Shown: one piece after another, positions 8,393 to 26,357 of the stretch | How the letters are laid out: every line of letters starts with the position of its first letter | Numbering within the stretch: position 1 is the first letter of the stretch | NCBI RefSeq assembly: GCF_036323395.1 | Contig: NZ_AP028907.1 | Span: forward strand, 690,001 to 722,000 | DNA: 32,000 nucleotides | Reading direction: 5' to 3' | From: Pyrodictium abyssi | GTDB taxonomy: Archaea; Thermoproteota; Thermoprotei_A; Sulfolobales; Pyrodictiaceae | Notes under the pieces: model-generated | Database searches by the model: none | Told to the model about the DNA's origin: nothing | Seen by the model: only the letters and a program-made list of their open reading frames with translations | Translations under genes and position numbers: made by a program

Positions 8393-9169
8393 CTAGCCCT
8401 TTGTCCCCTTCAACCTCTCTGGGAGGCTACATAGCTCTCCCGTCCTCTTCATGGCCCATGTCCCTATTAGTAGCGCATCTGCACCCGCCTCTGCGAGTCT
8501 AGCCGCCTTTTCGGCGCTGTCTATGCTGCTCTCTGCCACGAGGAGCGCGCTGGAGGGTTTCCGGGCTGCTGCCCTGGCTGTTTCTTCGAGGAGGCGCTGG
8601 TAGCTTATCTCTAGGGTCTCGAGGTTCCGCGCGTTTATACCGACTAGTGCCTCGGGGTAGCTGTTCATTGCCTCGACCGCGTCTTCTGCCCGGTGGGTCT
8701 CTATGAGCGCTTCTAGGCCTAGGCTTCTCGCCTCCTGGTAGAGCGTGTCGAGCTGCTTCCAGCCAAGCATGTCGAGTATGAGGAGTGCTGCTGAGGCGCC
8801 GGCGCGCTGGTACTGCTCTAGCTGGGCCCGCGACGAGGGGAAATCCTTGGCTACTACGGGGCGGTGCTGGGCGAAGAAGGCTACTAGCTCTAGGCTGCCG
8901 CAGAACCAGTAGGGCTCCACTAGCACCGAGTAGGCGTCCGCAACGGGTAGTGTCGCTTCCAGGTAGCTCCAGGGCGTATGGTAGGCTACGAAGCCTCGGG
9001 GGCTGCACCGCTTGTACTCGATTATCAGTGCTGGCCTCTTCTCCTGCCCTACGGCGCGCTCTACTGCTTGGCGGAGGCTCGTGGGCCTAGGGGGCGAGGC
9101 TAGTAGTTCTGTGCGCTTCCTGCTCCACCTGTAGGCCTCTGCTAGGAACCCACGCGGGAGGCGCTCCAT
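8393..9169 (-). CDS. trpC: Indole-3-glycerol-phosphate synthase
   Basis: 258 aa. Motifs LIIEYKRCSPRG, VAKDF, LLILDML, IETH, VGINARNLETL, AESSI and LLIG match IGPS. It is the last gene of the tightly packed trp operon. Confidence 0.9.
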   Translation of the reverse strand: MERLPRGFLAEAYRWSRKRTELLASPPRPTSLRQAVERAVGQEKRPALIIEYKRCSPRGFVAYHTPWSYLEATLPVADAYSVLVEPYWFCGSLELVAFFAQHRPVVAKDFPSSRAQLEQYQRAGASAALLILDMLGWKQLDTLYQEARSLGLEALIETHRAEDAVEAMNSYPEALVGINARNLETLEISYQRLLEETARAAARKPSSALLVAESSIDSAEKAARLAEAGADALLIGTWAMKRTGELCSLPERLKGTKG

Positions 9170-9181
9170 GTTCTCCGGGCC

Positions 9182-9772
9182 TCACCATGGGTTGTCTAGG
9201 AAGTTGCGTAGTATCCTGGGCCCGGTTGGCGAGGCCACGCTCTCGGGGTGGAACTGCACACCGTGGACGGGGTATTCGACGTGCCTTAGCCCCATTATCT
9301 CGCCGTCGCTCCGGCTCCGGGCTGTGACCTCTAGGTGCACTGGCGGATCGTAGACGACTAGGCTGTGGTACCTCACTGCTGTGAAGACCCGGGGCACGCC
9401 GTGGTAGAGCCGGCCGCCGTAGTGCTCTATCTCGTCTAGCTTGCCGTGCATTATCCGGCGGGCGCGGCGTATCTTGGCTCCGTAGGCTACCCCGACCACC
9501 TGGTGGCCCATGCATACGCCTAGTATCGGGATCCTGGGGCCTAGGCGGCGCACCAGCTCTATCGAGATGCCTACGTCGCGTTTTACCAGCGGGTTGCCCG
9601 GGCCCGGCGATATTATGATCCGGTCCGGGTTTATCCTCTCGACGCCGGAGACTGTTATCTCGTCGTTCCTCACCACTATGCTGCGCGCGCCCTGCTCCGC
9701 GAGGACGTGTACTAGGTTGTAGACGAAGCTGTCGTAGTTGTCTATTATGAGTACGAGCGTGTCGTAGGCCAT
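9182..9772 (-). CDS. trpG: Anthranilate synthase component II (glutamine amidotransferase)
   Basis: 196 aa. Signatures are LIIDNYDSFVYNLV, the catalytic GVCMGHQ and FHPES. Confidence 0.95.
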   Translation of the reverse strand: MAYDTLVLIIDNYDSFVYNLVHVLAEQGARSIVVRNDEITVSGVERINPDRIIISPGPGNPLVKRDVGISIELVRRLGPRIPILGVCMGHQVVGVAYGAKIRRARRIMHGKLDEIEHYGGRLYHGVPRVFTAVRYHSLVVYDPPVHLEVTARSRSDGEIMGLRHVEYPVHGVQFHPESVASPTGPRILRNFLDNPW

Positions 9773-9784
9773 GGCTCCCGGCCT

Positions 9785-11080
9785 CTATCCTTCCACGCCT
9801 AGGGCGCGGCGTATCGCTGCAAGCTTGTGCCTCGTCTCCATGTACTCGCGCTCGGGGCTGGAGTCGTACACTATGCCGGCGCCGGCCCGTGTCTCGACCG
9901 TCGAGTCGTCTATGCTCCATATGCTTCTTATCACTATGGCTGTCTCGCCAGCGTAGCCAGCGTAGACTCCCGCCGCGCCAGCGTAGGGGCCCCGGGGGCT
10001 GTCCTCGAGGCGCGCAATAGTCTCCATGGCGCGTGGCTTCGGGGCGCCGGAGACCGTGCCCGCCGGGTTGACGGCTGCTAGGACTGTCGCGTAGTCTACG
10101 CCGGGCTGCGCTACCGCCTCTACGCGGCTCACTATGTGCTGTACTGCGCTGTACTTCTCCACGTCCATGAACCTTGTGACCCTCACTGTGCCGGGGGCCG
10201 CGTAGCGGCCCAGGTCGTTGCGGGCCAGGTCTACTAGCATGAGGTGCTCTGCCTGCTCCTTCTCGTCGTGGAGCAGCTCCTCCTCGAGCGCAAGGTCCTC
10301 CTCCGGCGTCTTGCCGCGGGGCCTCGTGCCGGCTATCGGGTGTGTTTCCAGCCGCCCGTTCTCCATCCTCACTAGGAGCTCTGGGCTAGACCCGGCTATC
10401 CAGCGCTCCCCGAGCCTCATGTAGAACATGTAGGGCGATGGGTTGCCGTCGGCGAGCCGGCTATAGAGCGCGATGGGCTCCTCCTTGTACTCGTAGCGCT
10501 CGAAGCGGGAGAGCACTACCTGGAGGAACTCGCCCCTCGCTAGAAGCTCTATCGCCTCCCGGACCCAGGCCTCGAACGTGCTACGCGGCGTCTCCTCGAC
10601 CGGGCCGCGGGCCACGGCCCACCCGTCTACGCCGCGTTCACCCGTCTCGGCGTCGCCGGGGCAGACCGTGGCGTGGCCCCGGGCGTTGTCGTAGACTACA
10701 AGGGTCTCGGGCTGGAAGACCGCCACTACGGGCCACGTGTGCTGCTTCAGCATGGGTGCTAGCCAGGGCTCGGTAGCCGCCACCGCCTCGTAGCCGACGA
10801 CGCCGAACACCATGTCCCGGCACGGTATGCTAGTACACTCGCCGCTGGCGAGCCTGCGTAACGCGTCGTAGGCTTCCAGGGGGTTGCGCTCCTCCACGAC
10901 ACGGCGGGCGCCGTAGGCCACTATCGTGTAGCGGGCTTTCTCGCTGGGCCCGGTACCGCTCTCAAGGAGCGCGACGTACCCTGTGTGCTCCTCTGCCCAT
11001 GCTGCGAGGCGGCGGGGCTCTGGCGCCCTCGAGATGGGTATGCGGCGGCAGTCCTGCCACATGGAGTCTGCTAGCTGCAC
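9785..11080 (-). CDS. trpE: Anthranilate synthase component I
   Basis: 431 aa with a GTG start; an alternative ATG is at 11062. Signatures are LLESGTG, SPELLV, GTVSGAPKPRAME and GPYAGAAGY. Confidence 0.95.
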   Translation of the reverse strand: MQLADSMWQDCRRIPISRAPEPRRLAAWAEEHTGYVALLESGTGPSEKARYTIVAYGARRVVEERNPLEAYDALRRLASGECTSIPCRDMVFGVVGYEAVAATEPWLAPMLKQHTWPVVAVFQPETLVVYDNARGHATVCPGDAETGERGVDGWAVARGPVEETPRSTFEAWVREAIELLARGEFLQVVLSRFERYEYKEEPIALYSRLADGNPSPYMFYMRLGERWIAGSSPELLVRMENGRLETHPIAGTRPRGKTPEEDLALEEELLHDEKEQAEHLMLVDLARNDLGRYAAPGTVRVTRFMDVEKYSAVQHIVSRVEAVAQPGVDYATVLAAVNPAGTVSGAPKPRAMETIARLEDSPRGPYAGAAGVYAGYAGETAIVIRSIWSIDDSTVETRAGAGIVYDSSPEREYMETRHKLAAIRRALGVEG

Positions 11081-11742
11081 CCCGCGAGCACCTCTACCAG
11101 TTGTTTCACCTTCCCTGGGTCCTTACGGCCAGGCTCGGCTTCGACACCGCTGCTCACGTCGATCATGTAGACCCCGGTGGAGGCTACTAGGCAGGCGTTG
11201 CTCGCGTCTATGCCCCCGGCTGCTGCCGCCCTCCGTGTACATGCCGCCGCGCGGCGGTAGGCTTCCAGGGGGACTCGTAGCCCTGCCTCGTAGCGCCTCC
11301 CTAGCCCCTTCACAGCGTCTACAAGGAGGTACTCGTGGCTAGGCACGGTCTCCGCCGCGGTGCAGGGGTCGGGGCTGAGCTTTTCGCCGTCCCATAGCGC
11401 GACGGGTGCCAGCGCTACGCCTAGCTCGTCTAGGCCTGCTTTGAGCTCCTCTAGCTCCGCTGGGCCGGCGGGCTGGTGGTACTGCAGCACGTGGAACACC
11501 TCTAGCCTAGCCGCCAGGTCTATGGCCTCGTGGACGCTGTAGCCGTGGGCTACGAGGACGCGCCGGCTCCTCGACACGGTCTCTGCGAGGCTGCGGGCTT
11601 CGCCGGGCTCGAGCACCCTTGGCGTCACCCTGGTCTTTGCGACTATGAAGCCTAGGTAGTCTGTTAGCCCGTCCAGCGTCTCGACATCGCCTCTACGCGT
11701 GAGCCCGCATATCTTCAGCTTTGGCCGCAGCATTGCTGGCAT
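11071..11742 (-). CDS. trpF: Phosphoribosylanthranilate isomerase
   Basis: 223 aa. The N-terminus KLKICGLTRRGD and the TIM-barrel PRAI pattern are present. The gene overlaps the trpD 3' end; an alternative ATG is at 11733. Confidence 0.9.
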   Translation of the reverse strand: MPAMLRPKLKICGLTRRGDVETLDGLTDYLGFIVAKTRVTPRVLEPGEARSLAETVSRSRRVLVAHGYSVHEAIDLAARLEVFHVLQYHQPAGPAELEELKAGLDELGVALAPVALWDGEKLSPDPCTAAETVPSHEYLLVDAVKGLGRRYEAGLRVPLEAYRRAAACTRRAAAAGGIDASNACLVASTGVYMIDVSSGVEAEPGRKDPGKVKQLVEVLAGCS

Positions 11743-12773
11743 GCCTCGCGGAGGCTGTCTATGAGCATGGCTACCCTGCCCTCGCTGAGCGCCTGCACCG
11801 CTGCCTCGGCTCCGTCGCGTAGACTCTTCACCCGGCCCGCAGCGTAGAGGGCAGCCGCGGCGTTGGCCGCTACGAAGTCGCGGTCGCTAGGCCTCCCACC
11901 GCCGCGGGCTACTGCTAGGAACCGCTCGACGCTCTCCTCTGGCGTCTCTATCCGGAGCTCCTTGAGGCTGTACCGCTTCAGGCCCAGGTCCTCTGGCTCT
12001 ATCGTGTACTTCTCTAGGGTGCCCTTGTTTAGCTCGTATATAGTGGTCCTACCGGATACGCTCACCTCGTCTATCCCCGGCTCGCCGTGGACTACTAGGA
12101 GCCTCTCGTAGCCAAGCATACTGCCCGCTGAGGCCATGACCTCGAGTAGTTCTGGCCGTGCTACGCCGAGCACCTGGCGGCGGACGCCGCCCGGGTTCGC
12201 GAGGGGGCCGACGAGGTTGAACACTGTCCTTATGCCGAGCCGGCGGCGAACCGGCATAACCCTCTTCATTGCCGGGTGGTAGCGGGGCGCGTAGAGGAAG
12301 GCGAAGCCCGCGCGCCTCAGCATACACTCTGCCTCGCGTGGGCCATGGTCTATCCTGTAGCCCAGCGCTTCGAGGAAGTCCGCGCTTCCGCTACGGCTGC
12401 TTACGCTCCGGTTGCCGTGCTTTAGGACAGGGACTCCGAGGCTCGCTGCTACCAGCGCTGCCGCGGTCGAGGCGTTCAGGGTGTGCGAGCCGTCGCCGCC
12501 GGTGCCAGCCGTGTCGACCGGGTCTAGGCCAGCAGTGTCCACCTTTTCGCATGCATCGCGGAGCGCTGTGGCGAAGCCTGCTACTATGTCTGCTGTCTCC
12601 CCGTAGGCACGGAGAGCCACTAGTATAGCTGCTATCGCTGTATCGTCTAGCTCACCGCTCAGCATAGCCGCTGCTATCTTCTTGGCATCGTCGAAGCCTA
12701 TGCCAGTCCCTGTTAGTAGAGCCTCTAGTATCCTGGGCAGGTCTATGCCCGTGGATGCCACCTGGGGGCTCAC
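11715..12773 (-). CDS. trpD: Anthranilate phosphoribosyltransferase
   Basis: 352 aa. Signatures are DTAGTGGDG, KHGNRSVSS and FNLVGPLANP. GTG 12773 overlaps the trpB stop (GTGA). The alternative GTG 12761 lies 9 nt after GGAGGTG. Confidence 0.95.
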   Translation of the reverse strand: MSPQVASTGIDLPRILEALLTGTGIGFDDAKKIAAAMLSGELDDTAIAAILVALRAYGETADIVAGFATALRDACEKVDTAGLDPVDTAGTGGDGSHTLNASTAAALVAASLGVPVLKHGNRSVSSRSGSADFLEALGYRIDHGPREAECMLRRAGFAFLYAPRYHPAMKRVMPVRRRLGIRTVFNLVGPLANPGGVRRQVLGVARPELLEVMASAGSMLGYERLLVVHGEPGIDEVSVSGRTTIYELNKGTLEKYTIEPEDLGLKRYSLKELRIETPEESVERFLAVARGGGRPSDRDFVAANAAAALYAAGRVKSLRDGAEAAVQALSEGRVAMLIDSLREACQQCCGQS

Positions 12774-14071
12774 CTCCTTGCGTTAGCCGGCTCGGGCACC
12801 TGGCCGTCGACTATCCTTGAGCTAATCTTCTCGTAGGCGTCAATGTCCATTAGCCCGTGGCCGCTCAGATTGAAAACTATGACAGAGCCTGGCTCGGCGC
12901 GGCGAGCAACATCGATGGCCGCCTTTATTGCGTGGGTGCTCTCCGGCGCCGGGAGTATGGCCTCCGCCCGGGCGAAGATACGGGCTGCCTCGAAGACCTC
13001 CTCTTGGCTGTAGGCCGCTGCTTCTACCAGGCCTAGCTTCCTTAGGAGCGATAGGCTCGGGGCTGCGCCGTGGTAGCGGAGCCCGGCAGCGTGGATAGGC
13101 GGCGGCACGTAGTCCTTGCCGAGGCTGTACATCCTAGCCAGGGGGAGTACTAGCCCCGTGTCGAGGCCGTCGTAGCGGTATGTGCCCTTGCTGAGCCGGG
13201 GTGCTGCAGTGGACTCTGCCGCTATGAACTGTGTCTTGTCGAAGCCTTCGCCGCGTAGCCGCATGCCCAGCGCCGGGTAGGTGAACCCGGCCATGTTGCT
13301 GCCGCCGCCGACGCATGCTATCATGTAGTCTGGCTCCTCGGGGAGCTGCTGGAGGAGCTCCTGGCCTATCACTGTCTGGTGCGTGACCACGCTCTCGAGC
13401 ACAGAGCCGGCGACGTAGCGGCGCCGGGGGTTCTCGAGGACGTACTCAATAGCCTCCGTTATTGCTAGGCCTAGGCTGCCAGGGTGGTCGGGGCGCTCCC
13501 GTAGCGCCCGCCGGCCGGCCTCCGTCACTGTGCTGGGGCTGGGGTGCACCGTGGCGCCTAGCGCCTGCATGGCTATGCGGCGGGGCTTCTTCTTCTCGTA
13601 GCTGCTCCTCGTCATGAACACTGTAGCCTTGAGGCCAAGCATCGCCGCAGCCATAGACACCGCGAGGCCCCACTGGCCTGCCCCAGTCTCGGTGGCCACC
13701 TCCTCGGCGCCGTCGAGGAGGGCATAGTAGACCTGTGGCACAGCCGTGTTGAGCTTATGGCTGCCCGTGGGCAGCACGCCCTCGTACTTGTAGTATATCC
13801 GTGCCCTACCGTGGACGCCGATCGCCTTCTCAAGGCCCTCAGCGCGTATGAGCGGGGTAGGCCGGCCAGCCTTCCTGTAGGCTTCGCGGACGCGCTCGGG
13901 TATCGGTATGAGCCGGCTGAGCGTATACTCCTCGTCTATCAGCCTGGACGGCAGTATCTTGACAAGCAGCGCTATCCTCGAGTCCTCGTCCTCCAGGGGG
14001 TCTAGGAGCGGCGGCAGCGGTACGGGCAGGTCGGCTACTATGTTGTACCAGTAGCGGGGCACATCCACCAT
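12770..14071 (-). CDS. trpB: Tryptophan synthase beta chain, long TrpB2-type
   Basis: 433 aa. Signatures are GSHKLNTA (PLP lysine context), GGGSNMAG and LSGHGLMD. The length and HKLNTA motif fit the TrpB2 class rather than canonical TrpB1. Confidence 0.95.
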   Translation of the reverse strand: MVDVPRYWYNIVADLPVPLPPLLDPLEDEDSRIALLVKILPSRLIDEEYTLSRLIPIPERVREAYRKAGRPTPLIRAEGLEKAIGVHGRARIYYKYEGVLPTGSHKLNTAVPQVYYALLDGAEEVATETGAGQWGLAVSMAAAMLGLKATVFMTRSSYEKKKPRRIAMQALGATVHPSPSTVTEAGRRALRERPDHPGSLGLAITEAIEYVLENPRRRYVAGSVLESVVTHQTVIGQELLQQLPEEPDYMIACVGGGSNMAGFTYPALGMRLRGEGFDKTQFIAAESTAAPRLSKGTYRYDGLDTGLVLPLARMYSLGKDYVPPPIHAAGLRYHGAAPSLSLLRKLGLVEAAAYSQEEVFEAARIFARAEAILPAPESTHAIKAAIDVARRAEPGSVIVFNLSGHGLMDIDAYEKISSRIVDGQVPEPANARR

Positions 14072-14078
14072 CGCATCC

Positions 14079-14846
14079 TCACCCCTCGCCGTGGCTTGTC
14101 TTCGCAGAGTGTACGGCCTGGTGGATGCTGCAGGCCAGGCTCCTGGCTTCGTCGACGCCTTTCTCCTCTATGAGCCGTAGGATCGCCGAGCCGACTACCA
14201 CCGCGTCAGCGCCGCTACGGATCAACGCTGCTGCTGTCTCGGGCCGGCGTATCGCGAACCCTGTGAGCAGGTACCGGCTGCCGACCAGCATTCTGGCTAG
14301 CTTGACGTTCTTCTCCACTGCTATCGGCAGCTCGACTCCTGTGGCTGGCTGTAGGCCTAGGTAGATGTAGAGAGGGTCTAGCGCAGCGTAGCGCTGGAGC
14401 CAGCTGTGGGGGAACCTGCTGGAGGCAAAGAAGCAGGGCCTTAGCCCGGCCCGCTCGCTCTCCTCCACATACTTGTCGAGCATCTCTGGGTAGTCGAAAG
14501 CCAAGTCGGGTAGCAGTACGCAGCCAGCGCCCACAGAGGCTGCCGCCTCGAGCAGCCCGCGGAGGCTGTCCACGTAGTCCTCCATGTAGGCCATCAGGGT
14601 GAACGGCTTGTCTATGCCCGTCTTCTCTAGGAGCTTTAGCGTCTCGACGCCCCGTAGCCCTGCTGCGACTACGCGGCGGTGGCTAGCACGCACCGTCGGC
14701 CCGTCGTACTTTGGCCTCGCCGTTGGCAGCCCCAGCTCGTAGAAGTCTACACAGCTGGAGAGGCTCCCGAGGATCTGGGAGAACCGGGCCGGCTCGGGGA
14801 ACCCTATGGTGAGGTATACGCTGAACCCCGGCCGGCTTAACTCCAT
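14079..14846 (-). CDS. trpA: Tryptophan synthase alpha chain
   Basis: The start is set at ATG 14846 (MELSRPGFSVYLTIGFPEP...ELGLPTARPKYDGPTV). The longer GTG 14906 start would lie between the TATA box (14918-14925) and the expected transcription start. Confidence 0.9.
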   Translation of the reverse strand: MELSRPGFSVYLTIGFPEPARFSQILGSLSSCVDFYELGLPTARPKYDGPTVRASHRRVVAAGLRGVETLKLLEKTGIDKPFTLMAYMEDYVDSLRGLLEAAASVGAGCVLLPDLAFDYPEMLDKYVEESERAGLRPCFFASSRFPHSWLQRYAALDPLYIYLGLQPATGVELPIAVEKNVKLARMLVGSRYLLTGFAIRRPETAAALIRSGADAVVVGSAILRLIEEKGVDEARSLACSIHQAVHSAKTSHGEG

Positions 14847-14900
14847 TGGCAGGACATCACTCCCACTCCTCCGCCAGGAGGCTTGTCCAGGGCTAGTCCG

Positions 14901-14925
14901 GCCCACTGGACTCCCACTATAAAAG
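14901..14925 (-). promoter_or_regulatory. trp operon promoter: TATA box flanked by a hexamer direct repeat
   Basis: The plus strand reads GCCCAC(14901-14906)-tggac-TCCCAC(14912-14917)-TATAAAAG(14918-14925). On the coding (minus) strand this is CTTTTATA-GTGGGA-gtcca-GTGGGC. The TATA box starts 1 nt after the upstream gene's stop codon. A third GTGGGA lies at 14861-14866 in the leader. Confidence 0.5.
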
Positions 14926-16306: not shown

Positions 16307-16500
16307 GCCTGGGCCCCAAGGGGCTCCGGCTGGAGCCGGGAATATCTGTCTACCACATCCGGTATCCCCCGGGCCAGCCGCAGGAAACAGAGAACAGCTG
16401 TTGCCCCGGGCCTCGCCCGGCCTCCTGGACGCTAGGTCACGGAGCCAACCACATATATTCCCTCGGGCCGGCTGGCCCAGGGAAGAGGTGCCGCAGGGGC

Positions 16501-17022: not shown

Positions 17023-17715
17023 CTATTCTAGCACGCCCATGAGCCTCCATGCCTGGAGGAGTTCTCTCAGCGTTAGCTGGCCGGGGGCTACGGGCTCGCC
17101 TAGGCTAGCGTAGGTCAGGGCACCGCCCATCAGCGGGGCTAGTATCCGGGATAGCCTGCCTAGCCGCCCCATAGCGAAGGCTGCCGCCCGGCCCGGCCAC
17201 CGGGAGTTTATGCCGAGCACCTTCCAGTTATCCTCCAGGGTTTTAGCGGTCGTAACTACCTTTACTACCGCTGCGCCGCGGCGTATCATGTCGCCCGCGT
17301 AGCTGTAGAGCACCTCGGGTGGCGGCGTCCAGCGGAAGTCGTGCATGGATACTATCACGCGGCCCCTGGCGGCCTGGAGCGCCTCGTCGAGGAGGCTAAA
17401 GCGGTACTCGACATCTATCAGCCAAGCCCCATGGTCTAGCAGGGATAGTAGTGTGTCCAGCTTCTCCCTGTCGGGGCCACTGTAGCGGCCGCCCTCGCGG
17501 CTATCGCGGAGCGTGGCTATAGCGCGGATACCCCGGCTAGACAGCTCTTCTACGGCACGCTGGGCCTCGCTGAGGCCGTAGCCTAGCAGATCCAGCCTCA
17601 GCTCTACTACTCGGCAGCCCTCCCGGGCTACTGCCTCTGCTAGCTGGCTTGGCGGAGCTGGTTCCGGTATGCAGGCGACCCGGTCGAGTAGCCTACTGGC
17701 CACTGCTTGCTGCAA
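17023..17715 (-). CDS. aroD: 3-dehydroquinate dehydratase, type I
   Basis: 230 aa with a TTG start; an alternative GTG is at 17703. VVELRLDLL and the type I DHQase TIM-barrel pattern are present. It overlaps the aroB 3' end. Confidence 0.85.
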   Translation of the reverse strand: MQQAVASRLLDRVACIPEPAPPSQLAEAVAREGCRVVELRLDLLGYGLSEAQRAVEELSSRGIRAIATLRDSREGGRYSGPDREKLDTLLSLLDHGAWLIDVEYRFSLLDEALQAARGRVIVSMHDFRWTPPPEVLYSYAGDMIRRGAAVVKVVTTAKTLEDNWKVLGINSRWPGRAAAFAMGRLGRLSRILAPLMGGALTYASLGEPVAPGQLTLRELLQAWRLMGVLE

Positions 17716-18811
17716 GGCGCCACGCCTCGGCTAGAAGGTCTAGCGCCTCCTCGATCCCCATTGACACCAATACGGGCTTTCCTATCTCCTTCAGCATCGG
17801 CATAACTATCCTGTTGCCACGTCTCTTCTTGTCTAGCTTTATCGCCTCCAATGTCTCCATGGGGTCTAGCCCTGACGGCGGCGCTGTCGGCAAGCCTATT
17901 GAGGAGAGCAGCGAGCGTATCTCCTCTATGTCCTCCCTAGGCGCGCCAAGCTTCATTGTGGCTGCTATCCCCTCGACTACTAGGCCTATTGCTACCGCGT
18001 AGCCGTGTCTCATTGTGTATCCCGTCGCCTTTTCTAGTGCATGAGCTACCGTGTGACCGAGGTTGAGTATCATCCTGTCGCCACGCTTCTCGCGGTAATC
18101 CCTAGAGACTATGCTCATCTTCACGTCTAGGCTGTACTTCACAGCCCTCGTTAGCGTCTCGGGGTTCCGCTTAACGAGCCCCTCCGCGTTGCCGCGGAGC
18201 CAGTCTAGGAGGTCGCGCCCGTGTATAGCCGCGTGCTTGACTATCTCAGCGAGGCCAGAGACGTACTCTTCGTGTGGAAGCGTTCCCAGGTGGTCTATGT
18301 CTGCCACGACTATCCTGGGGTGGTGGAAGACTCCTACAATGTTCTTCGCGCCGAGGTTTACCGCTGTCTTGCCCCCAACAGCCGCGTCCGCCATAGCTAG
18401 GAGCGTTGTCGGGACTGTGGCCCAGTCTATCCCCCTCATGTAGGTGGCTGCCACGAAGCCAGCTGTGTCTGAGACCGCGCCACCGCCGTAGGCTACTAGG
18501 AGTGCGTCACGGGGCACGTTCTCCTTAGCCATCCAGCTCCACAGCTGGACTACTGTGTCGAGTGTCTTGGTCTTCTCGCCGCCCGGGAGCTCGGTGAAGT
18601 AGACCGGGATGCCTGCATCGCGGATACCTGCTAGTATGTCGCCGAGCATAGCGCGGGGCGCGCCCGCGTCAGCGACGACTACTATCGTGGAGTAGGGGCC
18701 GTACTCGAGCGCTAGCCTGCCTATGAGGCGGCGGGCGCCCGGGCCAACGATTATGGCTACGTCGTGGCTGTCCTGGATTATCCAGCAGCCACGGTCCGCT
18801 TCCTGACTCAT
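17693..18811 (-). CDS. aroB: 3-dehydroquinate synthase (canonical AroB type)
   Basis: 372 aa. Signatures are GGGAVSDTAGFVAATYMRGI, the metal-site motif LNLGHTVAHALE and HGYAVAIG. It has an ATGA overlap with the upstream DAHP synthase gene. Confidence 0.9.
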   Translation of the reverse strand: MSQEADRGCWIIQDSHDVAIIVGPGARRLIGRLALEYGPYSTIVVVADAGAPRAMLGDILAGIRDAGIPVYFTELPGGEKTKTLDTVVQLWSWMAKENVPRDALLVAYGGGAVSDTAGFVAATYMRGIDWATVPTTLLAMADAAVGGKTAVNLGAKNIVGVFHHPRIVVADIDHLGTLPHEEYVSGLAEIVKHAAIHGRDLLDWLRGNAEGLVKRNPETLTRAVKYSLDVKMSIVSRDYREKRGDRMILNLGHTVAHALEKATGYTMRHGYAVAIGLVVEGIAATMKLGAPREDIEEIRSLLSSIGLPTAPPSGLDPMETLEAIKLDKKRRGNRIVMPMLKEIGKPVLVSMGIEEALDLLAEAWRLAASSGQ

Positions 18812-19626
18812 ATTAGCCCAGCTCCCCGTAGCTGGTCTACAAGTTCCTCGAACATCTTAAACGGTAGCTGCTGCTTAGAGTCGCTGAGCGCCTTGTCGGG
18901 GTTAGGGTGGACCTCCATCATTACCCCGTGAGCGCCTGCTGCTAGGGCTGCGCGGGCTAGCCATGGCACTAGGCTGCGGCGGCCCGCTGGGTGGCTCACG
19001 TCCACTATTATCGGCAGCCTTGACACCTCCCTGACCACCGGCACCACTGTTATGTCTAGGCTGAAGCGGGCGTACTCGTTGAAGCCCCTGGTCCCCCTCT
19101 CCACCAGGGCGACCTCCTCCAGCCCGCCAGCTAGTAGGTACTCGGCGCTGCAGAGCCACTCGTTTATCGTTGCTCCGAAGTGTCTCTTGAGGAGCACTGG
19201 TTTGCCCGCCCGGGCTAGCTCGCGGAGGAGCGGGGTGTTCTGCATGTTGCGCGCGCCGACCCACATTATGTCTACGTACTCTGCCGCCGTCTTCACGTCG
19301 CGTGGGTCCATGACCTCGGTGGCTACCGGTAGTCCCGTCCGGTCGCCGGCTTCCCGTAGCCATTCAAGGGCCTTGGCTCCGTGGCCCTGGAAGCTGTAGG
19401 GGCTAGTGCGCGGCTTCCATGCGCCGCCCCGTATCACCACGTTGCGGAAGCCGTACTTGTCAACGAGTATCCTCTTTATCGCCTCGGCTGTCTCCACTAT
19501 CATGTCTCTGTCTTCTATGCTGCAGGGGCCCGCTATTATCACGGGTGTTTCGCCGCCTATCTCGACCCCGCGTACGCGGAAGCGTATGGGCTCGCCGCTC
19601 TCGCGGAGGACACGCCTACAGTCCAT
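18808..19626 (-). CDS. aroF: 3-deoxy-7-phosphoheptulonate (DAHP) synthase, short type I-beta
   Basis: 272 aa. Signatures are VIIAGPCSIE, GGAWKPRTSPYSFQG, KRHF and DVSHP. No regulatory extension domain is present. Confidence 0.9.
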   Translation of the reverse strand: MDCRRVLRESGEPIRFRVRGVEIGGETPVIIAGPCSIEDRDMIVETAEAIKRILVDKYGFRNVVIRGGAWKPRTSPYSFQGHGAKALEWLREAGDRTGLPVATEVMDPRDVKTAAEYVDIMWVGARNMQNTPLLRELARAGKPVLLKRHFGATINEWLCSAEYLLAGGLEEVALVERGTRGFNEYARFSLDITVVPVVREVSRLPIIVDVSHPAGRRSLVPWLARAALAAGAHGVMMEVHPNPDKALSDSKQQLPFKMFEELVDQLRGAGLI

Positions 19627-19708
19627 CGCGCGTGCACCCCGTGAGCTTTTTGTGCGCGCCTGGCGCCCTTAGCGCCGCGCCCTGGAGGCCTCTGGGCCGC
19701 GAAAGGGC

Positions 19709-19734
19709 TTTATACTGTTCCCACTCTGGTGGGA
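19709..19734 (+). promoter_or_regulatory. Candidate promoter/operator of the tkt-tyrA operon
   Basis: TTTATA (19709-19714) is followed after 4 nt by the inverted repeat TCCCAC (19719-19724)-tctg-GTGGGA (19729-19734). A second TTTAAA lies at 19757-19762. Confidence 0.4.
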
Positions 19735-19890: not shown

Positions 19891-20619
19891 ATGGGCGTGG
19901 TGGAGAAAAGCGTACACGTAGGCGCGTCGCTCAGCGTGCTCGACATCCTAGTGACGCTGTACTTCGGCAGAGGCTTGAGGAAGACTGGCAGCAGGCCGAC
20001 GGAGCGCGACTGGCTGATACTGAGCAAGGGCCACGCTGTTCCCGCGCTCTACGCTGTTCTAGCCGAGATGGGGCTCATATCAGAGGAGAAACTGGACTCG
20101 ATAAGGGCTATCGACGGGCTTGAGGGGCATCCAGACTTCACGACCGAGGGCGTAGACGTGTCTACCGGCAGCCTCGGCCAGGGCCTGAGCATCGCAGCCG
20201 GTATAGCATACGCTATGAGGCTCGATGGCACCGAGGACCGGCACAAGGTCTACGTGATACTGGGTGACGGCGAGCTAGACGAGGGCCAGGTATGGGAGGC
20301 CGCTGCTACTGTGACGCACCTGGGCCTCCGCAGCGTAGTAGCAATAGTGGACGTTAACGGGTTCCAGCTCGACGGTCCGGTGGAGGCTATCAAGACTAAG
20401 GGCGATCTCGTTCTCCGCTGGCGTAGCCTCGGCTGGAGCGTGATAGAGGTAGACGGCCACGACTACGAGATGCTCCTCTCCGCGCTGGGGGCTGCTGACC
20501 AGGAGAAGAGGCCGACGGTTATACTCGCCTACACGCGTAGGGGCAAGGGTCTAGGCTTCCTAGAAGCGAGTGGGGGCCAGCACATTGACCGTAAGCATGC
20601 AGAGCGGTTTGCCGAGTGA
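19891..20619 (+). CDS. tkt: Transketolase, N-terminal (TPP-binding) subunit
   Basis: Signatures are GHAVPALYAVLAEMG, LEGHP, STGSLGQGLSIAAG and GDGELDEGQVWEA. The coordinates start at the first in-frame ATG. Conserved-looking N-terminal sequence (ISLSEKLHEISLRARQRIIR) continues upstream with no canonical start codon (see findings). Confidence 0.85.
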   Translation: MGVVEKSVHVGASLSVLDILVTLYFGRGLRKTGSRPTERDWLILSKGHAVPALYAVLAEMGLISEEKLDSIRAIDGLEGHPDFTTEGVDVSTGSLGQGLSIAAGIAYAMRLDGTEDRHKVYVILGDGELDEGQVWEAAATVTHLGLRSVVAIVDVNGFQLDGPVEAIKTKGDLVLRWRSLGWSVIEVDGHDYEMLLSALGAADQEKRPTVILAYTRRGKGLGFLEASGGQHIDRKHAERFAE

Positions 20620-21559
20620 GCTCCGGGGTGTAACCCGGATACGCGACGCTGTAGGCAAGGCGCTGCTGTTCCTCGGCGACGCCGACCCGGACGTGGTAGT
20701 GCTGACCGCGGACGTTGCTAGGAGTACTAGGACCTCGTGGTTCGCCGAGAAGTTCCCCGAGAGGTTCGTCAACATAGGGATATCGGAGCAGGACATGGTG
20801 GGGTTTGCCGCCGGGCTCGCGCTAGCCGGGAAGAAGCCCTACGCAGCGGCCTTCGCCATGTTCATGATGAGGGCCTGGGAGCAGATACGGAACAGCATTG
20901 ACAGAATGAACCTCGACGTGAAGCTGCTGGCCACCCATAGCGGGTTCAGCGACCACGGCGACGGCGCTAGCCACCAGAGCCTCGAGGACATAGCACTGAT
21001 GCGCGTACTCCACAACATGGCTGTAGTGGTCCCGGCCGACCCGCCGCAGGCCTACAAGGCCCTGCTGAGGGTACACGAGGAGGTAAGGGGCCCAGTATAC
21101 TTCAGGATAGGCCGCGACTACTCGCCCCAAGTGACCGACCCCGGCGCCGAGTACCGGTTCGGCGAGCTAGAGCTGCTTAGGGACGGCAGCGACGTCGCGC
21201 TCGTCTCAGCCGGGCCCATACTGTCGCAGGTGGTGGAGGCTGCTGAGCTGCTCCGCCGCGAGGGCGTAGACGCCGCTGTAGCCAACATGCACACAGTGAA
21301 GCCGCTGGATGAGCATGGCCTCGAGAAGCTCGCTAGGCGCACCGGGCTAGTGATCGTGGTCGAGGAGCACTTCCCCCGGGGCGGTTTATTCGGCGCCGTG
21401 GCCGAGGCGCTCGCCCAGCGTTACCCCGTACCCATCCACCCGGTAGCTGCCAAGGGCTATGGGCATAGCGCGCGTAGCGTGCTCGACCTCTACCGGGAGC
21501 ACGGGCTCCTAGCCCAGTCGATAGCCTCCCGTGTCCTCGAGATACTGGCCAGGGGGTGA
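20597..21559 (+). CDS. tkt: Transketolase, C-terminal (pyrimidine-binding) subunit
   Basis: Signatures are TRIRDAVGKAL, VNIGISEQDMVGFAAGLA and HQSLEDIALMR. The ATG 20597 start overlaps the end of the N-subunit gene. The ORF is open from GTG 20570. Confidence 0.85.
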   Translation: MQSGLPSELRGVTRIRDAVGKALLFLGDADPDVVVLTADVARSTRTSWFAEKFPERFVNIGISEQDMVGFAAGLALAGKKPYAAAFAMFMMRAWEQIRNSIDRMNLDVKLLATHSGFSDHGDGASHQSLEDIALMRVLHNMAVVVPADPPQAYKALLRVHEEVRGPVYFRIGRDYSPQVTDPGAEYRFGELELLRDGSDVALVSAGPILSQVVEAAELLRREGVDAAVANMHTVKPLDEHGLEKLARRTGLVIVVEEHFPRGGLFGAVAEALAQRYPVPIHPVAAKGYGHSARSVLDLYREHGLLAQSIASRVLEILARG

Positions 21560-22620
21560 CCAGGGGAGCCTTGACCGGCGGGGATGCAGCCGAGGCGTTA
21601 CGCTCGAGCCTACTCCGGATAGACCGCTCCCTAGTCAGCCTGATAGCAGCACGGCTCAACATAGCCGACGTCCTCGGCGGGGTGAAGCGGAGCGAGGGTA
21701 TGCCGGTCTACGATAGGGCGCGCGAATTGACCGTCGCCAGCCTGCTCGCCGATGAGGCTCGGAGCCTAGGCGTGCCAGACAGCCTCATCAAGGAGATATA
21801 CTTCATGCTGGCCAGGGAGTCGAGGTGCCGCCAGCTCTACTGCCCTGAGGCGCTAAGGGTAGCCTTCTACGGCTACGGCCGTATGGCCCGGATGCTGGCA
21901 GGCATGATGTCCCATGGCGGCTGCTGGGTGGCCATAACCGGGAGGAACCCTGAGAAGGCCCAGGAGGCTGCACGAGCCGTAGGAGCCCGGTACATGGAGC
22001 CCAGGAGGGCCATCGACTGGGCCGACATGCTGGTCTACGCTGTGCCGAGCACCGCCGTGCCAGAGCTGCTTAGGGAGCACCTGCCAATGCTCCGTGAGAG
22101 CATGTTAGTAGCCGACATAGCCTCGGTGAAGACCCCCCTCGTCGAGAAGATAGCGCTACTCCTCGGAGAGGGCTCGCCGGAGTATGTGAGCCTCCACCCG
22201 CTCTTCGGCCCCCTAAGCTGCCCAGCCGGCGAGAACGTGGCCGTAGTGCCGGTCAGGCTCGAGGGGTGGCGCCCGAGGCTAGAGAAGCTCTTCACGGGCC
22301 TTGGGCTCAACCCGGTATACGTGACCGCTGAGGAGCACGACCGCGTAATGGCTGTCAACCAGGTACTACACCACCTAGTATACGACCTCTACCGGGAGGC
22401 TGCTAGGATACTCCACGAGAAGCTGGAGATAGACCCGGGGCGCTCGAAGGAGCTCGTAACCTGGAGCCTCAAGAAGACAGAGAACATAGCCGCCCGGCTC
22501 GAGCAGCTCCACAGCGTGGTCGAGGAGATACGCCGGGAGAACCCCTACACGGAGGAAGTATTCAAGGCCCTCAGCCAGGCCCTTCAGCGACTCGCTGAGG
22601 CCCAGGCGGGCGACTCCTAA
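21556..22620 (+). CDS. tyrA: Bifunctional chorismate mutase (AroQ-type) / prephenate dehydrogenase
   Basis: 354 aa. The N-terminal ~90 aa (LRSSLLRIDRSLVSLIAARLNIADVLGGVKRSEGMPVYDRARE) is an AroQ helical chorismate mutase. The remainder (VAFYGYGRMARMLA...IASVK...HPLFGP) is prephenate dehydrogenase. The GTG start overlaps the tkt stop (GTGA). Confidence 0.85.
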   Translation: MTRGALTGGDAAEALRSSLLRIDRSLVSLIAARLNIADVLGGVKRSEGMPVYDRARELTVASLLADEARSLGVPDSLIKEIYFMLARESRCRQLYCPEALRVAFYGYGRMARMLAGMMSHGGCWVAITGRNPEKAQEAARAVGARYMEPRRAIDWADMLVYAVPSTAVPELLREHLPMLRESMLVADIASVKTPLVEKIALLLGEGSPEYVSLHPLFGPLSCPAGENVAVVPVRLEGWRPRLEKLFTGLGLNPVYVTAEEHDRVMAVNQVLHHLVYDLYREAARILHEKLEIDPGRSKELVTWSLKKTENIAARLEQLHSVVEEIRRENPYTEEVFKALSQALQRLAEAQAGDS

Positions 22621-22678: not shown

Positions 22679-22903
22679 ATGCGCCTACGCTCCTTCCGTT
22701 CTCCTTCTTTAACTCGTTCACGGGAATGCCATGGCTGGCCAATAGGGATACTCATAGCATTCTATGTCTACAGCGACGCTTCCCGTAGATACCCACGGGG
22801 CAGCCTAGCTCCGCTCGTCTGGACCATAGCTGTCGTGTTCGGCGGGCTACTGGTGCTGGTACTCTACCTCCTCGTAAGACCACAGGAGCGGAGAGAAGAC
22901 TAG
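22679..22903 (+). CDS. Small two-helix membrane protein (hypothetical)
   Basis: 74 aa. WPIGILIAFYVYSDASRRYPRGSLAPLVWTIAVVFGGLLVLVLYLLVRP resembles the short YVYxDA-type membrane proteins common in archaea; this comparison is from memory. Its 3' end overlaps the aroC stop by 4 nt (convergent). Confidence 0.4.
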   Translation: MRLRSFRSPSLTRSRECHGWPIGILIAFYVYSDASRRYPRGSLAPLVWTIAVVFGGLLVLVLYLLVRPQERRED

Positions 22904-24045
22904 CCAGCCGGGCCTCCAAGGCCCCTCTCCAGGCGATGGTAGTGCTCAAGCCTCCACGGGAGCCAGCGTAGCAAGTGGTCTGCCACAACGAGGGCTGCCG
23001 CAGCCTCGACGACGGGTACTGCTCTGACAGCTATTGCTGGGTCGTGGCGGCCTCTGCCGGTTATCTCGGCTTCTTCTAGTCCCCGCCAGTCTATCGTCTT
23101 CTTTGGCAGCCTTATCGTCGAGGTCGGCTTGAAGGCTACACGGGCTACTATGGGCGCCCCGGCTGCTATCCCGCCGAGTATTCCGCCGCCGTGGCCCGGG
23201 ACCGGTGTGGGCGCCGCATCTGGGCCTAGTACCAGGTCGTCTGTGGCCTCTGAGCCCCTCATACGTGCCACGGCCATACCGGTGCCGAATTCTACGCCCT
23301 TCACGCCGGGTATCGCGAAGAACGCTTTTGCTAGGTCGCCGTCCAGGGTGTCGAAGGGCGGCTCGCCGAGGCCGGGCGGGGCGCCTAGTATCCAGAGCTC
23401 TACTAGGCCTCCGAGGCTGTCGCCCTTCTTCATAGCCTCTATTAGTGCTTGCTCCATCTCCCGGGAGGCGGCCTCGTCGTGGCAGAATACTGGGCTCTTG
23501 TTTCTCTCCTCGCGCAGCCTCTGGAGCTGCTCGCCGCCGGCGAGGCCCCGGGGCTCCGGGCACTCGGCTGGGCCGAGCGCCCTGAGGTACGCATAGAACT
23601 GTATGCCGTGCATACCGGCTATCTTCTTAGCCACCGTGCCCGCGGCTACTAGTGCTGCTGTGAGCCGGCCGGAGAAGGGGCCGCCGCCGCGGTAGTCGTT
23701 GAACCCCATGCTCCGGAGCCTTGCCGTGAGGTCGGCGTGGCCGGGGCGCGGCCTATAGCGGACCACCTGCTCGTAGAAGCTGCTGTCCACGTCGCGGTTG
23801 CGTATTAGCATGGCTAGGGGCGCGCCCGTGGTGTAGCCCATGTGGACGCCGGAGAGTATCTCTACGCGGTCCTCCTCGCGGCGTGGCGTGGTGAGCCGGC
23901 GGCCCGGCCGCCGTAGCTCAAGCTCCCTGTCTATCTCCTCCGGCGAGACCGGTACACCGGGCGGCACGCCCTCTAGCACAGCGCCTATGCAGCAGCCGTG
24001 GCTCTCCCCGAATATGGTGAGCCGCAGCACAGTGCCCAGCGGCAT
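22900..24045 (-). CDS. aroC: Chorismate synthase
   Basis: 381 aa. Signatures are LRLTIFGESHG, RPGHAD, GRLTAA and GGILGGI. Confidence 0.95.
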   Translation of the reverse strand: MPLGTVLRLTIFGESHGCCIGAVLEGVPPGVPVSPEEIDRELELRRPGRRLTTPRREEDRVEILSGVHMGYTTGAPLAMLIRNRDVDSSFYEQVVRYRPRPGHADLTARLRSMGFNDYRGGGPFSGRLTAALVAAGTVAKKIAGMHGIQFYAYLRALGPAECPEPRGLAGGEQLQRLREERNKSPVFCHDEAASREMEQALIEAMKKGDSLGGLVELWILGAPPGLGEPPFDTLDGDLAKAFFAIPGVKGVEFGTGMAVARMRGSEATDDLVLGPDAAPTPVPGHGGGILGGIAAGAPIVARVAFKPTSTIRLPKKTIDWRGLEEAEITGRGRHDPAIAVRAVPVVEAAAALVVADHLLRWLPWRLEHYHRLERGLGGPAG

Positions 24046-24060
24046 CCCGGGGCTACACCT

Positions 24061-25386
24061 CTACCGGGCTGTGTTGCTTCCGGCCTCCCTTATCTCGGCG
24101 CCCAGGGCTCTAAGCGCCTCCCAGAACCCGGGGTAGGACTTGGCCACCACGTCGGCTGGCTCTACTACGACGGGCTTCTCGGAGACGAGGCCCAGCAGAG
24201 CAGCAGCCATCGCTATCCTGTGGTCGCCGTGGCTACTGTAGGCTACGCCGCCGGGGAGCCTGCCACAGCGCCCGACAACCTCTATGCAGAGCCCCTCGCC
24301 GGGCGCCTCCAGCAGCCTCGCGTCTACGCGGGAGCGGCGAAGCAGGTCCATAACCGCCTCGGCACGGTCGCTCTCCTTGAGCCGTAGCCTCTCCACGCAG
24401 CATATCCGGGAGCGGCCGCAGGCAGCCGCCGCGAGAGCCGCGAGGGTCGGCGCCAGGTCCGGGGAGTCGCGGATACAGACGCTGAAGCCCTGAAGCCCCC
24501 CGCTGGGCGCCTCGGCTGCGACGCTCTGGCCGCTGACCCGGATCCGGGCCCCCATCTCCCGGAGCACGTCGAGCACCGCGCGGTCCGGCTGCGGGTCGCC
24601 GGGGTCAACGCCCCGGACCACGGCCCGGCCGGCCAGCGCCCCCGCCGCGAGAAGCGGGGCAGCGCTGCTCCAGTCTCCCGGGACCCTGTACCTAGAGGGC
24701 CGGAGCGGCCCCTCGACCCGGAACCAGCTGTAGCCGTCCCTCTCCACACTGGCCCCGAACGCCTCGAGGACCCGGACCGTGATGTCCACGTAGGGCCGGG
24801 ACTCGAGCCCCTCAACGGCCACCTCTAGGCCTTGGGGGAGCCCCGCGCCCAGGACTAGGAGGGCCGAAAGGTACTGGCTGCTCTCCCTCGCGTCTACGCG
24901 CGTAGAGCCGCTGCGTGCCGGCCCCTTCACCGCGTGCGGCGGGCAACAGCCACCGGAGAGCAAGTACTCGACGCCCAGCCTGGCTAGGGCCTCGAGGAGG
25001 GGCCTCACCGGCCTCTTGTGGAGCCTGCCCCTCCCGTACACGAGGACCGGCTTATCGAGGAGCGCCGCCACGCCCGTCACAAGCCTCATCGTAGTCCCCG
25101 ACTCGGCCGCGTCTATGCAAGGGGTCCACTCCAGCGCTCCTGCTCCCGGCGAAGCCAGCTCCAGGGCCCCGTCCCCCTCTACGCTGGCGCCTAGCTGCTT
25201 GACGGCTGCGAGCGTGGCCCGAGTGTCGTTGCTCCAGAGCGGGTTCTCTACCACAGACCTTCCCGCCGCTAGGAGCCCGGCGAGGAGCGCCCGGTGGGTG
25301 TAGCTCTTCGAGGGCGGCGCCTCCACGCTGCCATCGAGCCGGGAGGGCGCCACCTCGACCCTCCTGGGCAGCCACGCCTCCTGCAT
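24061..25386 (-). CDS. aroA: 3-phosphoshikimate 1-carboxyvinyltransferase (EPSP synthase)
   Basis: 441 aa. Signatures are PPSKSYTHRALLA, SSQYLSALL, RLKESDR and GDHRIAMAAALLGL. Confidence 0.95.
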   Translation of the reverse strand: MQEAWLPRRVEVAPSRLDGSVEAPPSKSYTHRALLAGLLAAGRSVVENPLWSNDTRATLAAVKQLGASVEGDGALELASPGAGALEWTPCIDAAESGTTMRLVTGVAALLDKPVLVYGRGRLHKRPVRPLLEALARLGVEYLLSGGCCPPHAVKGPARSGSTRVDARESSQYLSALLVLGAGLPQGLEVAVEGLESRPYVDITVRVLEAFGASVERDGYSWFRVEGPLRPSRYRVPGDWSSAAPLLAAGALAGRAVVRGVDPGDPQPDRAVLDVLREMGARIRVSGQSVAAEAPSGGLQGFSVCIRDSPDLAPTLAALAAAACGRSRICCVERLRLKESDRAEAVMDLLRRSRVDARLLEAPGEGLCIEVVGRCGRLPGGVAYSSHGDHRIAMAAALLGLVSEKPVVVEPADVVAKSYPGFWEALRALGAEIREAGSNTAR

Positions 25387-25434: not shown

Positions 25435-25462
25435 GATATACCTATGCCCACCGGGCTCCCAC
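25435..25462. promoter_or_regulatory. aroA / shikimate kinase divergent promoter: TATA-like box plus hexamer direct repeat
   Basis: GATATA (25435-25440) is followed after 5 nt by GCCCAC (25446-25451)-cgggc-TCCCAC (25457-25462). This is the same 6-N5-6 arrangement seen at the trp promoter. Confidence 0.45.
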
Positions 25463-25478: not shown

Positions 25479-26357
25479 GTGGCGGCGCAGCAGCGTGAGA
25501 AGGGAAGAGCACACGGAGCCCTAGGGATAGTCAACGCTATCGGCAGCGGAGGCTACGGAGCCGCTGCAGCACTCGACCTCGGCGTAGAGGTGGAGGTGTG
25601 GAGGTGTAGCCGCCCAGCCGGCTACACGGTGACCCGGGGCCAGCGTGTCGACATAGACCCGGCAATACTCGACGCGGTCGCGGAGACCGCGGGCAGCTTC
25701 CTCGGGCGCAGCGTCGGCCCCGTATGCGCGAGAGGCTCCTCGGAGGTGCCCCTCGAAGCCGGGCTTAAGGGGAGTAGCGCGCTAGTCAACGCGCTGCTAG
25801 AGGCTGTGCTAGGCCTCCACGGCGTCTCCCTCGGCGTAGAGGAGCTGGCCCGGCTCGGCGTAGAGGCGGCGCGGCGCGCCGGGCTCACCGTCACCGGTGC
25901 TCTGGACGACCACTTGGCCGTGAGCGGGTGCGGCGCGTACGCCACAGACAACAAACGCCAAGCCATAGTGGCGCGCGAGCCCAGCCTAGGCGGCTACGCC
26001 GTGATAGCTGTGCCCGGGCGCCGAAGCATAAGGGGCATAGACCCCGGGGCCTTCCGGCGCTACGAAAGGCTCTACGCCGCCGCGTGGAGGCTTGTGCTCG
26101 CAGGCGACTGGCACGCAGCCGCCACCGTGAACGGCGTCGCCACAGCAATGGCCACGGACGATGAGCCGCGGAGGCTCCTAGTACTCCTGGCGGAGGACGG
26201 CGTAGAGGCTGTAGGGGTGTCCGGCAAGGGCCCCGCAGTCTACACCATCACGAGCAGCACGGACACAGTCCCCAGGATCAGGGCTGCGCTGGAGAAGGCA
26301 GTAGGAGCCCCCACCCTCGTCTCCAAGCTTCTCCCCTGCACCCAGGCCCCCCGCTAG
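25479..26357 (+). CDS. aroK: Shikimate kinase, archaeal GHMP-kinase type
   Basis: 292 aa with a GTG start. GIVNAIGSG and the GHMP motif GLKGSSALVNALLEAV are present, and the gene sits in aro context. It is not the bacterial P-loop AroK fold. Confidence 0.85.
   Translation: MAAQQREKGRAHGALGIVNAIGSGGYGAAAALDLGVEVEVWRCSRPAGYTVTRGQRVDIDPAILDAVAETAGSFLGRSVGPVCARGSSEVPLEAGLKGSSALVNALLEAVLGLHGVSLGVEELARLGVEAARRAGLTVTGALDDHLAVSGCGAYATDNKRQAIVAREPSLGGYAVIAVPGRRSIRGIDPGAFRRYERLYAAAWRLVLAGDWHAAATVNGVATAMATDDEPRRLLVLLAEDGVEAVGVSGKGPAVYTITSSTDTVPRIRAALEKAVGAPTLVSKLLPCTQAPR

Follow-up and report, generated by a model that had tools for sequence, protein, structure and literature searches.

Paired GTGGG half-sites at the aromatic amino-acid promoters of Pyrodictium as candidate operators of a pathway regulator

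Control of aromatic amino-acid genes in archaea

Two archaeal regulators are among the closest described systems. In Thermococcus kodakarensis, Tar (TK0271) recognizes the box TGGACA-N8-TGTCCA and coordinates the whole aromatic pathway, that is, the trp operon, the tyr/phe genes, and the aro operon including the transketolase; Tar boxes are found upstream of the BRE/TATA, where they are activating, and the tar gene is itself within the aro operon (PMC6737238). In Methanothermobacter thermautotrophicus, TrpY acts at TRP boxes, its gene is divergent from trpE, and it has no known control over aro genes (PMC6737238). Crenarchaeota almost never have homologues of Tar or TrpY, and a third regulator or mechanism is possible (PMC6737238). 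In agreement with that remark, we found in the literature no described crenarchaeal aro/trp operator and no GTGGGA operator, and an earlier note on the DNA analyzed here, made from the sequence alone, had also known of none.

The DNA in question (the window from here on) is the whole stretch of 32,000 nucleotides from Pyrodictium abyssi, with a G+C content of about 62%. Its gene content is that of a Pyrodictium-type aromatic amino-acid (aro/trp) supercluster, and the assignments of its trp operon, aroG-B-D, tktN-tktC-tyrA, aroA-aroC, and archaeal shikimate kinase are correct. The relevant genes are:

8393..14846, minus strand: trpA-trpB-trpD-trpF-trpE-trpG-trpC operon (NCBIfam and Pfam matches)
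14927 to about 16306, minus strand: lpd-like flavoprotein gene (about 459 aa), with its stop codon at 14927-14929
17023..19626, minus strand: aroG (DAHP synthase)-aroB-aroD operon, divergent from tkt
19783/19891..22620, plus strand: tktN-tktC-tyrA (split transketolase and chorismate mutase/prephenate dehydrogenase)
22900..25386, minus strand: aroA (EPSP synthase)-aroC (chorismate synthase)
25479..26357, plus strand: aroK, archaeal GHMP-type shikimate kinase, divergent from aroA

Between aroD and trpA, all the Pyrodictium genomes examined carry the lpd-like gene and an ORF with an AlaX-like tRNA-editing domain (about 16500-16995 in the window).

Three paired sites in the window

Every aromatic-pathway transcription unit of the window has a paired site near a TATA-like box, at a distance of 0-3 nt, and the exact pair is absent from the other intergenic regions of the window. 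The sites and the promoter elements that go with them are:

14901..14917, minus strand: candidate trp operator, direct repeat GTGGGAG-TCCA-GTGGGC on the transcribed strand, abutting the TATA box
14918..14925, minus strand: trp TATA box CTTTTATA, 1 nt from the stop codon of the lpd-like gene
19700..19715, plus strand: BRE-like CGAAAGGG, then TATA box CTTTATAC, facing tktN
19719..19734, no strand assigned: candidate tkt/aroG operator, inverted repeat TCCCAC-TCTG-GTGGGA, that is, TCCCACTCTGGTGGGA
25436..25445, no strand assigned: TATA-like block ATATACCTAT, the single A/T block in the 92-bp aroA/aroK divergent region, directly beside the repeat
25446..25462, no strand assigned: candidate aroA/aroK operator, direct repeat GCCCACCGGGCTCCCAC, on the plus strand GCCCAC-CGGGC-TCCCAC

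At the trp promoter, the plus strand reads GCCCACTGGACTCCCAC (14901-14917) and then directly TATAAAAG (14918-14925), the repeat joining the TATA box without a gap. The probable trpA start, an in-frame ATG at 14846, is about 55 nt further on, behind an SD-like sequence, and CCAATGGAG is kept in the alignment of trp promoters (A1). At tkt, the inverted repeat starts 3 nt beyond the TATA box (19708-19715). The same A/T block in reverse, GTATAAAG, is the sole TATA candidate for aroG in P. occultum, and the inverted repeat, standing in the region that aroG-B-D shares with tkt, is about 85 nt upstream of the aroG ATG. The aroA/aroK repeat, which on the aroA strand reads GTGGGAG-CCCG-GTGGGC, faces two ways: it is downstream of the A/T block towards aroK, and upstream of it, over the BRE position, towards aroA. 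These TATA boxes, promoter assignments, and start sites are all predictions based on sequence and conservation.

The two direct repeats share the core GTGGG-N6-GTGGG with a period of 11 bp (GTGGGAG-N4-GTGGGC), and the core of the tkt site is CCCAC-N4-GTGGG. All the sequences quoted in the earlier note are present where it placed them, and its claim that the composite exceeds chance, twice at TATA-like boxes, is borne out: GCCCAC-N5-TCCCAC is found 2 times in the window versus 0.01 expected, with two or more matches in none of 100 dinucleotide-preserving shuffles. The two direct-repeat sites are in fact closer to each other than had been noted, with identity at 15 of 17 positions and a match at 3 of the 5 spacer bases (YGGRC). 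The inverted composite TCCCAC-N4-GTGGGA is found once versus 0.00 expected from the shuffles. The lone hexamer GTGGGA is not enriched in the window (9 found vs. 13.7 expected), and thus the signal lies in the pairing of half-sites and in their placement.

A third GTGGGA of the trp leader, also pointed out in the earlier note, is indeed at 14861-14866, but as an operator element it is not conserved: it is kept in P. delaneyi and missing from P. occultum and from a 95%-identical relative (L069). It also overlaps the SD-like sequence GGGAGTGAT upstream of the trpA ATG. On both grounds we have rejected it as a part of the operator, and it probably lies outside. Two other elements of the trp leader can be mentioned. 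One is (G/C)TGGA (window 14886-14889; columns 72-75 of A1), found without variation 15-19 nt past the second half-site in all six promoters of that alignment, also present in the metagenomic locus L079, and near the predicted trp start site; it could be a third, degenerate half-site. The other is the 13-mer CCCTGGACAAGCC, also present upstream of aroA in the relative L001 (2673-2682), which has no GTGGG pairs.

How do these sites compare with the described systems? The likeness to Tar is that one short paired motif is common to the trp, tyr, and aro/transketolase promoters, an analogy of logic only. The Tar box itself is absent from the window (4 matches at up to 3 mismatches vs. 7.5 expected, none in a promoter), and its half-site TGGACA is neither enriched in the window nor present in the promoters. 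Unlike Tar boxes, the Pyrodictium pairs follow or abut the TATA box, and are upstream of it only in the aroA reading; the half-sites are direct as well as inverted, and no regulator gene was found in the aro/trp clusters.

The likeness to TrpY is that the operator overlaps the trp core promoter, promoter occlusion being the likely mode. The TRP box is TGTACA, which is found 7 times in the window, none of them in the trp promoter region (between 14840 and 14960). In contrast with the TrpY arrangement, the gene upstream of the operon in Pyrodictium is lpd-like and has the same orientation as trp, and the motif extends to shikimate and tyrosine genes. Neither in Pyrodictium nor in the relatives L072 and L073 is there a regulator gene divergent from the first trp gene.

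As in the TyrR/TrpR systems of E. coli, where the TyrR box is TGTAAA-N6-TTTACA, several unlinked or divergent aromatic operons would be under one operator. E. coli belongs to another domain of life, with another transcription machinery and other motifs, and no homology is implied.

Conservation across the Pyrodictiaceae

Related loci were fetched using DAHP synthase, TrpA homologues, and shikimate kinase homologues, and a metagenome scan with TrpA gave two loci, one of them informative (L079). The TrpA of the window is 87% identical to that of P. delaneyi, 85% to that of P. occultum, and 95% to those in contigs from Logan runs.

At trp, a TATA box followed after 0-4 nt by GTGGG-N6-GTGGG is found in seven lineages: the window, L069, P. 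delaneyi (L065), P. occultum (L068), L072, L073, and L079. All 7 have the A/T-rich octamer 0-4 nt upstream of the repeat, within DNA of 62-70% GC. In the six aligned promoters of A1, the ten half-site positions are invariant versus a mean column identity of 64%. The four-base spacers across the seven lineages are TCCA, CCTG, TTTA, CCCC, TTGG, GGGG, and TGGG, and the upstream flanks are unalignable. The gene upstream of the trp operon is the lpd-like gene in Pyrodictium; in L072 and L073 there are NiFe-hydrogenase/ferredoxin genes, with a PIN-like gene as the upstream neighbor in L073; and in L079 the preceding gene is ABC-ATPase-like, as judged by reading its C-terminal translation only. The lpd-like gene is absent from the trp operons of L072, L073, and L079. 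The trp site is kept despite these unrelated upstream genes, which argues that promoter and operator travel with the operon.

At tkt, the inverted repeat after the TATA box is kept in four Pyrodictium genomes (window, P. delaneyi, P. occultum, and L069), in the arrangement CTTTATAC-(T/C)GT-TCCCAC-N4-GTGGG, with spacers TCTG, TCTG, CTCG, and TCCG. In the corresponding alignment (A2), GCGAAAG and the TATA box are invariant, and the two bases in between differ in P. occultum. At aroA/aroK, three genomes (window, P. delaneyi, and P. occultum) have kept the repeat and the A/T block in an otherwise divergent intergenic region; the A/T blocks ATATACC, TTATACC, and ATAAACC are aligned (A3). Thus all three alignments have a conserved site amid diverging flanks, and invariant half-sites in the presence of changing spacers and flanks indicate selection on the half-sites. 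Phylogenetic footprinting had been proposed in the earlier note as a check, with absence from orthologous promoters counting against the motif; the motif is kept at the orthologous trp (seven lineages), tkt (four), and aroA/aroK (three) promoters.

Some observations concern P. occultum in particular. The Logan assembly of this species (DRR667394, L067) differs from the NCBI genome (L068) at 23 of 20,762 positions, among them a T to C change in the first trp half-site (GCGGGAG; 9927-9942 in both L067 and L068), which may reflect natural variation of the operator or a mistake in the assembly. A further exact inverted repeat, CCCACCGAGGTGGG, is peculiar to P. occultum; it stands 8 nt past GTATTAAC (L076 905-918, which is L068 8472-8485), between the lpd-like and AlaX-like genes, where the window, P. 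delaneyi, and L069 have none. And a pair of CCCAC half-sites, spaced by 21 bp or about two helical turns (L068 20072 and 20093), lies upstream of the P. occultum aroE (shikimate dehydrogenase), a gene that the window does not contain; this pair may be a weak additional site.

The start of tktN is unusual. Its frame is open from 19762, and the first canonical start is the ATG at 19891, with no ATG, GTG, or TTG earlier. The Tkt profile has 36 positions before the point where the ORF from 19891 starts matching, and therefore the tktN protein should reach further upstream; the conserved N-terminus begins near 19783. The SD GGAGGGGG (19769-19776) and a block GC(T/C)TATTGT(A/T)TCG are kept across genera (compared were window 19762-19891, L075 about 4185-4215, L076, L069, L001-L004, and L078 2817-2840). 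In frame, the block reads TTG-CCT-ATT-GTA in Pyrofollis and L001, and CAG-CTT-ATT-GTA in Pyrodictium, which suggests a non-canonical start (ATT?). In the +1 frame, it is a mini-ORF TTG-TAT/TTT-CGN-AGC-TAG (M-Y/F-R-S-stop).

Among more distant Pyrodictiaceae, L002, L004, and L008 carry the repeat in the interval from a TATA-like box to the aroG and/or tkt start. In L004, aroG and tkt each have a direct repeat of their own, in the sense orientation and 26-29 nt past a TATA-like box; in L008, GTGGGCTGCTGGTGGG follows CTTATAGG at a distance of 16 nt, upstream of aroG; and in L002, tkt has one repeat, and a copy with one mismatch lies over the aroG start. An inverted repeat, CCCACCAGGGTGGG, is found in L005 36-49 nt before the aroG start, inside the 3′ end of the upstream ORF as mechanically called, where the nearby TATA-like sequence is weak. 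In L077, in which aroA and aroK are separated, the repeat is between a TATA-like ATTTAG and the aroA start, with none at aroK. The repeat stays with aroA alone, and thus aroA is a real target.

The genes that keep aroA and aroK apart in L077 are two PIN/AF2212-like pairs. PIN-domain (VapC-like) toxin genes are present beside the aro/trp clusters of several Pyrodictiaceae (window 26404-26838, minus strand; L072, L073, L077, and L078).

The GTGGG pair is absent from the loci examined in Pyrolobus fumarii, Pyrofollis japonicus, the lower-GC MAGs L001 and L003, and Acidilobaceae, which makes the motif lineage-restricted. Pooling 14 non-redundant archaeal sequences (about 270 kb), we observe 14 exact direct and 6 exact inverted repeats, where dinucleotide shuffles lead one to expect 1.0 direct (at most 4) and 0.5 inverted (at most 3); the P. 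occultum figure is from the NCBI sequence and includes the extra inverted repeat found only in that species. All 20 are just upstream of, or between, aro/trp-cluster genes. As a control, 56 bacterial loci fetched incidentally (850 kb) have no exact repeats. This enrichment covers about 270 kb, and the shuffle expectation extrapolates to roughly ten chance matches per 2 Mb. The consensus of the direct repeats is t-n-GTGGG-A-G-N4-GTGGG-C.

A putative regulator and how it would act

The GTGGG pairs are very probably the binding site of a regulator. Invariant half-sites, TATA-adjacent placement, movement with the operon, and absence elsewhere in the sampled DNA are together the marks of a transcription-factor operator. 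Our main reading, to which we give a probability of about 0.75, is that the three sites are operators of one sequence-specific regulator of aromatic amino-acid biosynthesis in Pyrodictium and some Pyrodictiaceae, most likely a repressing one. The idea of a common regulator site at trp and aro promoters, put forward in the earlier note, has the support of phylogenetic footprinting, including that at aroG, tkt, and aroA of distant Pyrodictiaceae. From sequence alone, we infer protein binding, repression, and effector as follows.

The recognized unit would be the half-site GTGGG(A/C), paired either directly with an 11-bp period or inverted as CCCAC-N4-GTGGG. The pairs, 0-3 nt from the TATA box, would cover the interval that TFB and RNA polymerase need, or the BRE on the aroA side, such that a bound protein would block assembly of the pre-initiation complex and repress, presumably when the aromatic amino acids or a pathway intermediate are plentiful. 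Since the pair is in the TFB/RNA polymerase space at trp, tkt, the aroK side, the aroA of L077, and the aroG of L004 and L008, or else over the BRE, repression by occlusion is the most likely mode.

Archaeal repressors such as MDR1, LrpA, Phr, and TrmB/TrmBL1 (at TGM) bind just past the TATA box and block RNA polymerase recruitment. By analogy, the Pyrodictium site would act from the interval between the TATA box and the predicted start. A site over that interval or over the BRE, as expected for archaeal repressors in general, is what we observe, and it is conserved. The sites of those repressors differ in being palindromes of fixed symmetry, while the Pyrodictium half-site is used both head-to-tail (11-bp period) and head-to-head (9 bp center to center). 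That it is usable in both arrangements suggests a regulator protein with loosely coupled DNA-reading units. A similar usage is known from some ribbon-helix-helix repressors; omega of pSM19035, for one, binds heptads whichever way they point.

Three findings do not sit easily with a repressor. The orientation of the repeat varies: it runs with transcription at trp and against it on the aroK side and at the aroA of L077, and at tkt the repeat is inverted. The sites of L004 and L008 are 16-29 nt from the TATA box, as opposed to 0-4 nt elsewhere. And towards aroA, the site precedes the TATA box, where activators bind as well.

The last of these brings up the first alternative, a regulator that activates, or acts both ways depending on position, and that would be needed to fire the promoters when aromatic amino acids are scarce. 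Tar activates in Thermococcus, and TrmBL1/Tgr switches between activation and repression. The geometry at aroA-aroC, where the repeat is immediately upstream of the TATA-like box, and at the Pyrodictium aroG, where the inverted repeat is upstream of GTATAAAG, makes such a regulator possible. It is a poor fit to the TATA-downstream position at trp and tkt: the pair is between the TATA box and the gene at trp in seven lineages, at tkt, at the aroA of L077, and at the aroG of L004 and L008, and it takes up the room that TFB and RNA polymerase require. To our knowledge, this TATA-to-gene position is the repressor position in all archaeal systems studied. We consider activation or dual action unlikely.

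A second alternative would make the hexamer part of the core promoter, contacted by TFB or one of its paralogues in the manner of a downstream BRE and marking a class of promoters. The eukaryotic BREd consensus is RTDKKKK, of which GTGGGAG, found directly past the trp TATA box, matches 6 of 7 positions. Such an element would have a fixed orientation and distance at many promoters. What we observe instead is both orientations and an inverted pair, the need for a second copy 9-11 bp away, distances of 0 to 29 nt from the TATA box across species, and confinement to aro/trp among the promoters sampled. Variation in orientation and distance, together with pathway specificity, leaves a BREd-like element with very little probability.

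Least probable of all is an element acting in RNA, a chance or compositional repeat, or a functionless relic of promoter duplication: GTGGG and CCCAC pentamers are common in 62% GC DNA and the inverted repeat could in principle form a 6-bp hairpin, but the shuffles expect only 0.01 and 0.00 matches, the half-sites are invariant while spacers and flanks change, the trp and tkt sites are within about 20 nt past the TATA box and upstream of any plausible start site, and the window has no known RNA family (Rfam).

The putative regulator gene and the candidate regulon

Returning to a repressing regulator of the aromatic pathway, we found no candidate gene for it beside any site, in the window or in the loci of its relatives. 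The aro/trp clusters have only enzymes, a 74-aa membrane protein, and the lpd-like and AlaX-like genes, with no MarR-like wHTH gene, and the ORFs flanking the sites of L002, L004, L008, L072, and L073 have no DNA-binding domains.

Three ORFs of the window were considered. We have set aside a 414-aa wHTH protein (7075-8319, plus strand) as an improbable regulator. A signal peptide is followed by a Thr-rich linker, a single TM helix, and, at the C-terminal end, a winged helix (HTH_24/DUF7343), and from its sequence the protein looks like a membrane-anchored transcription factor. Its gene is convergent with trpC and divergent from a secreted-looking ORF of 1062 aa (3669-6857, minus strand), which is Thr/Ala-rich, with an N-terminal hydrophobic segment and no Pfam match. 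P. delaneyi, P. occultum, and L069 also have the pair. Beside trpC, the 414-aa gene is conserved only inside the fully syntenic genus Pyrodictium, and no copy adjoins the trp operons of L072, L073, and L079. A NikR-like gene (290-685, minus strand; RHH plus NikR_C) adjoins a P-type ATPase and is probably a metal regulator. That ATPase is apparently split into two ORFs, 1002-1619 and 1714-2610, both on the plus strand, one with the E1-E2 ATPase domain and the other with the HAD domain; it may be a frameshift or a pseudogene. Finally, the 74-aa ORF after tyrA has a hydrophobic translation that reads as a membrane protein.

A more specific form of the proposal, which we hold to be somewhat better than an even bet, is that the sites are the operator of a "third" archaeal aromatic regulator, unrelated to Tar or TrpY and possibly from an uncharacterized family, that would read GTGGG head-to-tail or head-to-head and would occlude the core promoters of the trp, tyr, and shikimate genes. 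We would describe the motif as a probable regulon operator, the operator sequence itself being undescribed in the literature we found. Since it is a cis element of a known kind and restricted to one lineage, its value lies in its usefulness and not in any change of paradigm. It defines a small candidate regulon (trp, tkt-tyrA, aroG-B-D, aroA-C, and aroK), and it offers a natural example of one half-site in direct and inverted arrangement in organisms growing near 100 °C. It also provides a conserved bait of 16-17 bp for finding the regulator, by DNA-affinity purification or by screens of recombinant transcription factors. With respect to the possible third regulator of Crenarchaeota (PMC6737238), the Pyrodictium motif is a concrete lead towards finding that protein.
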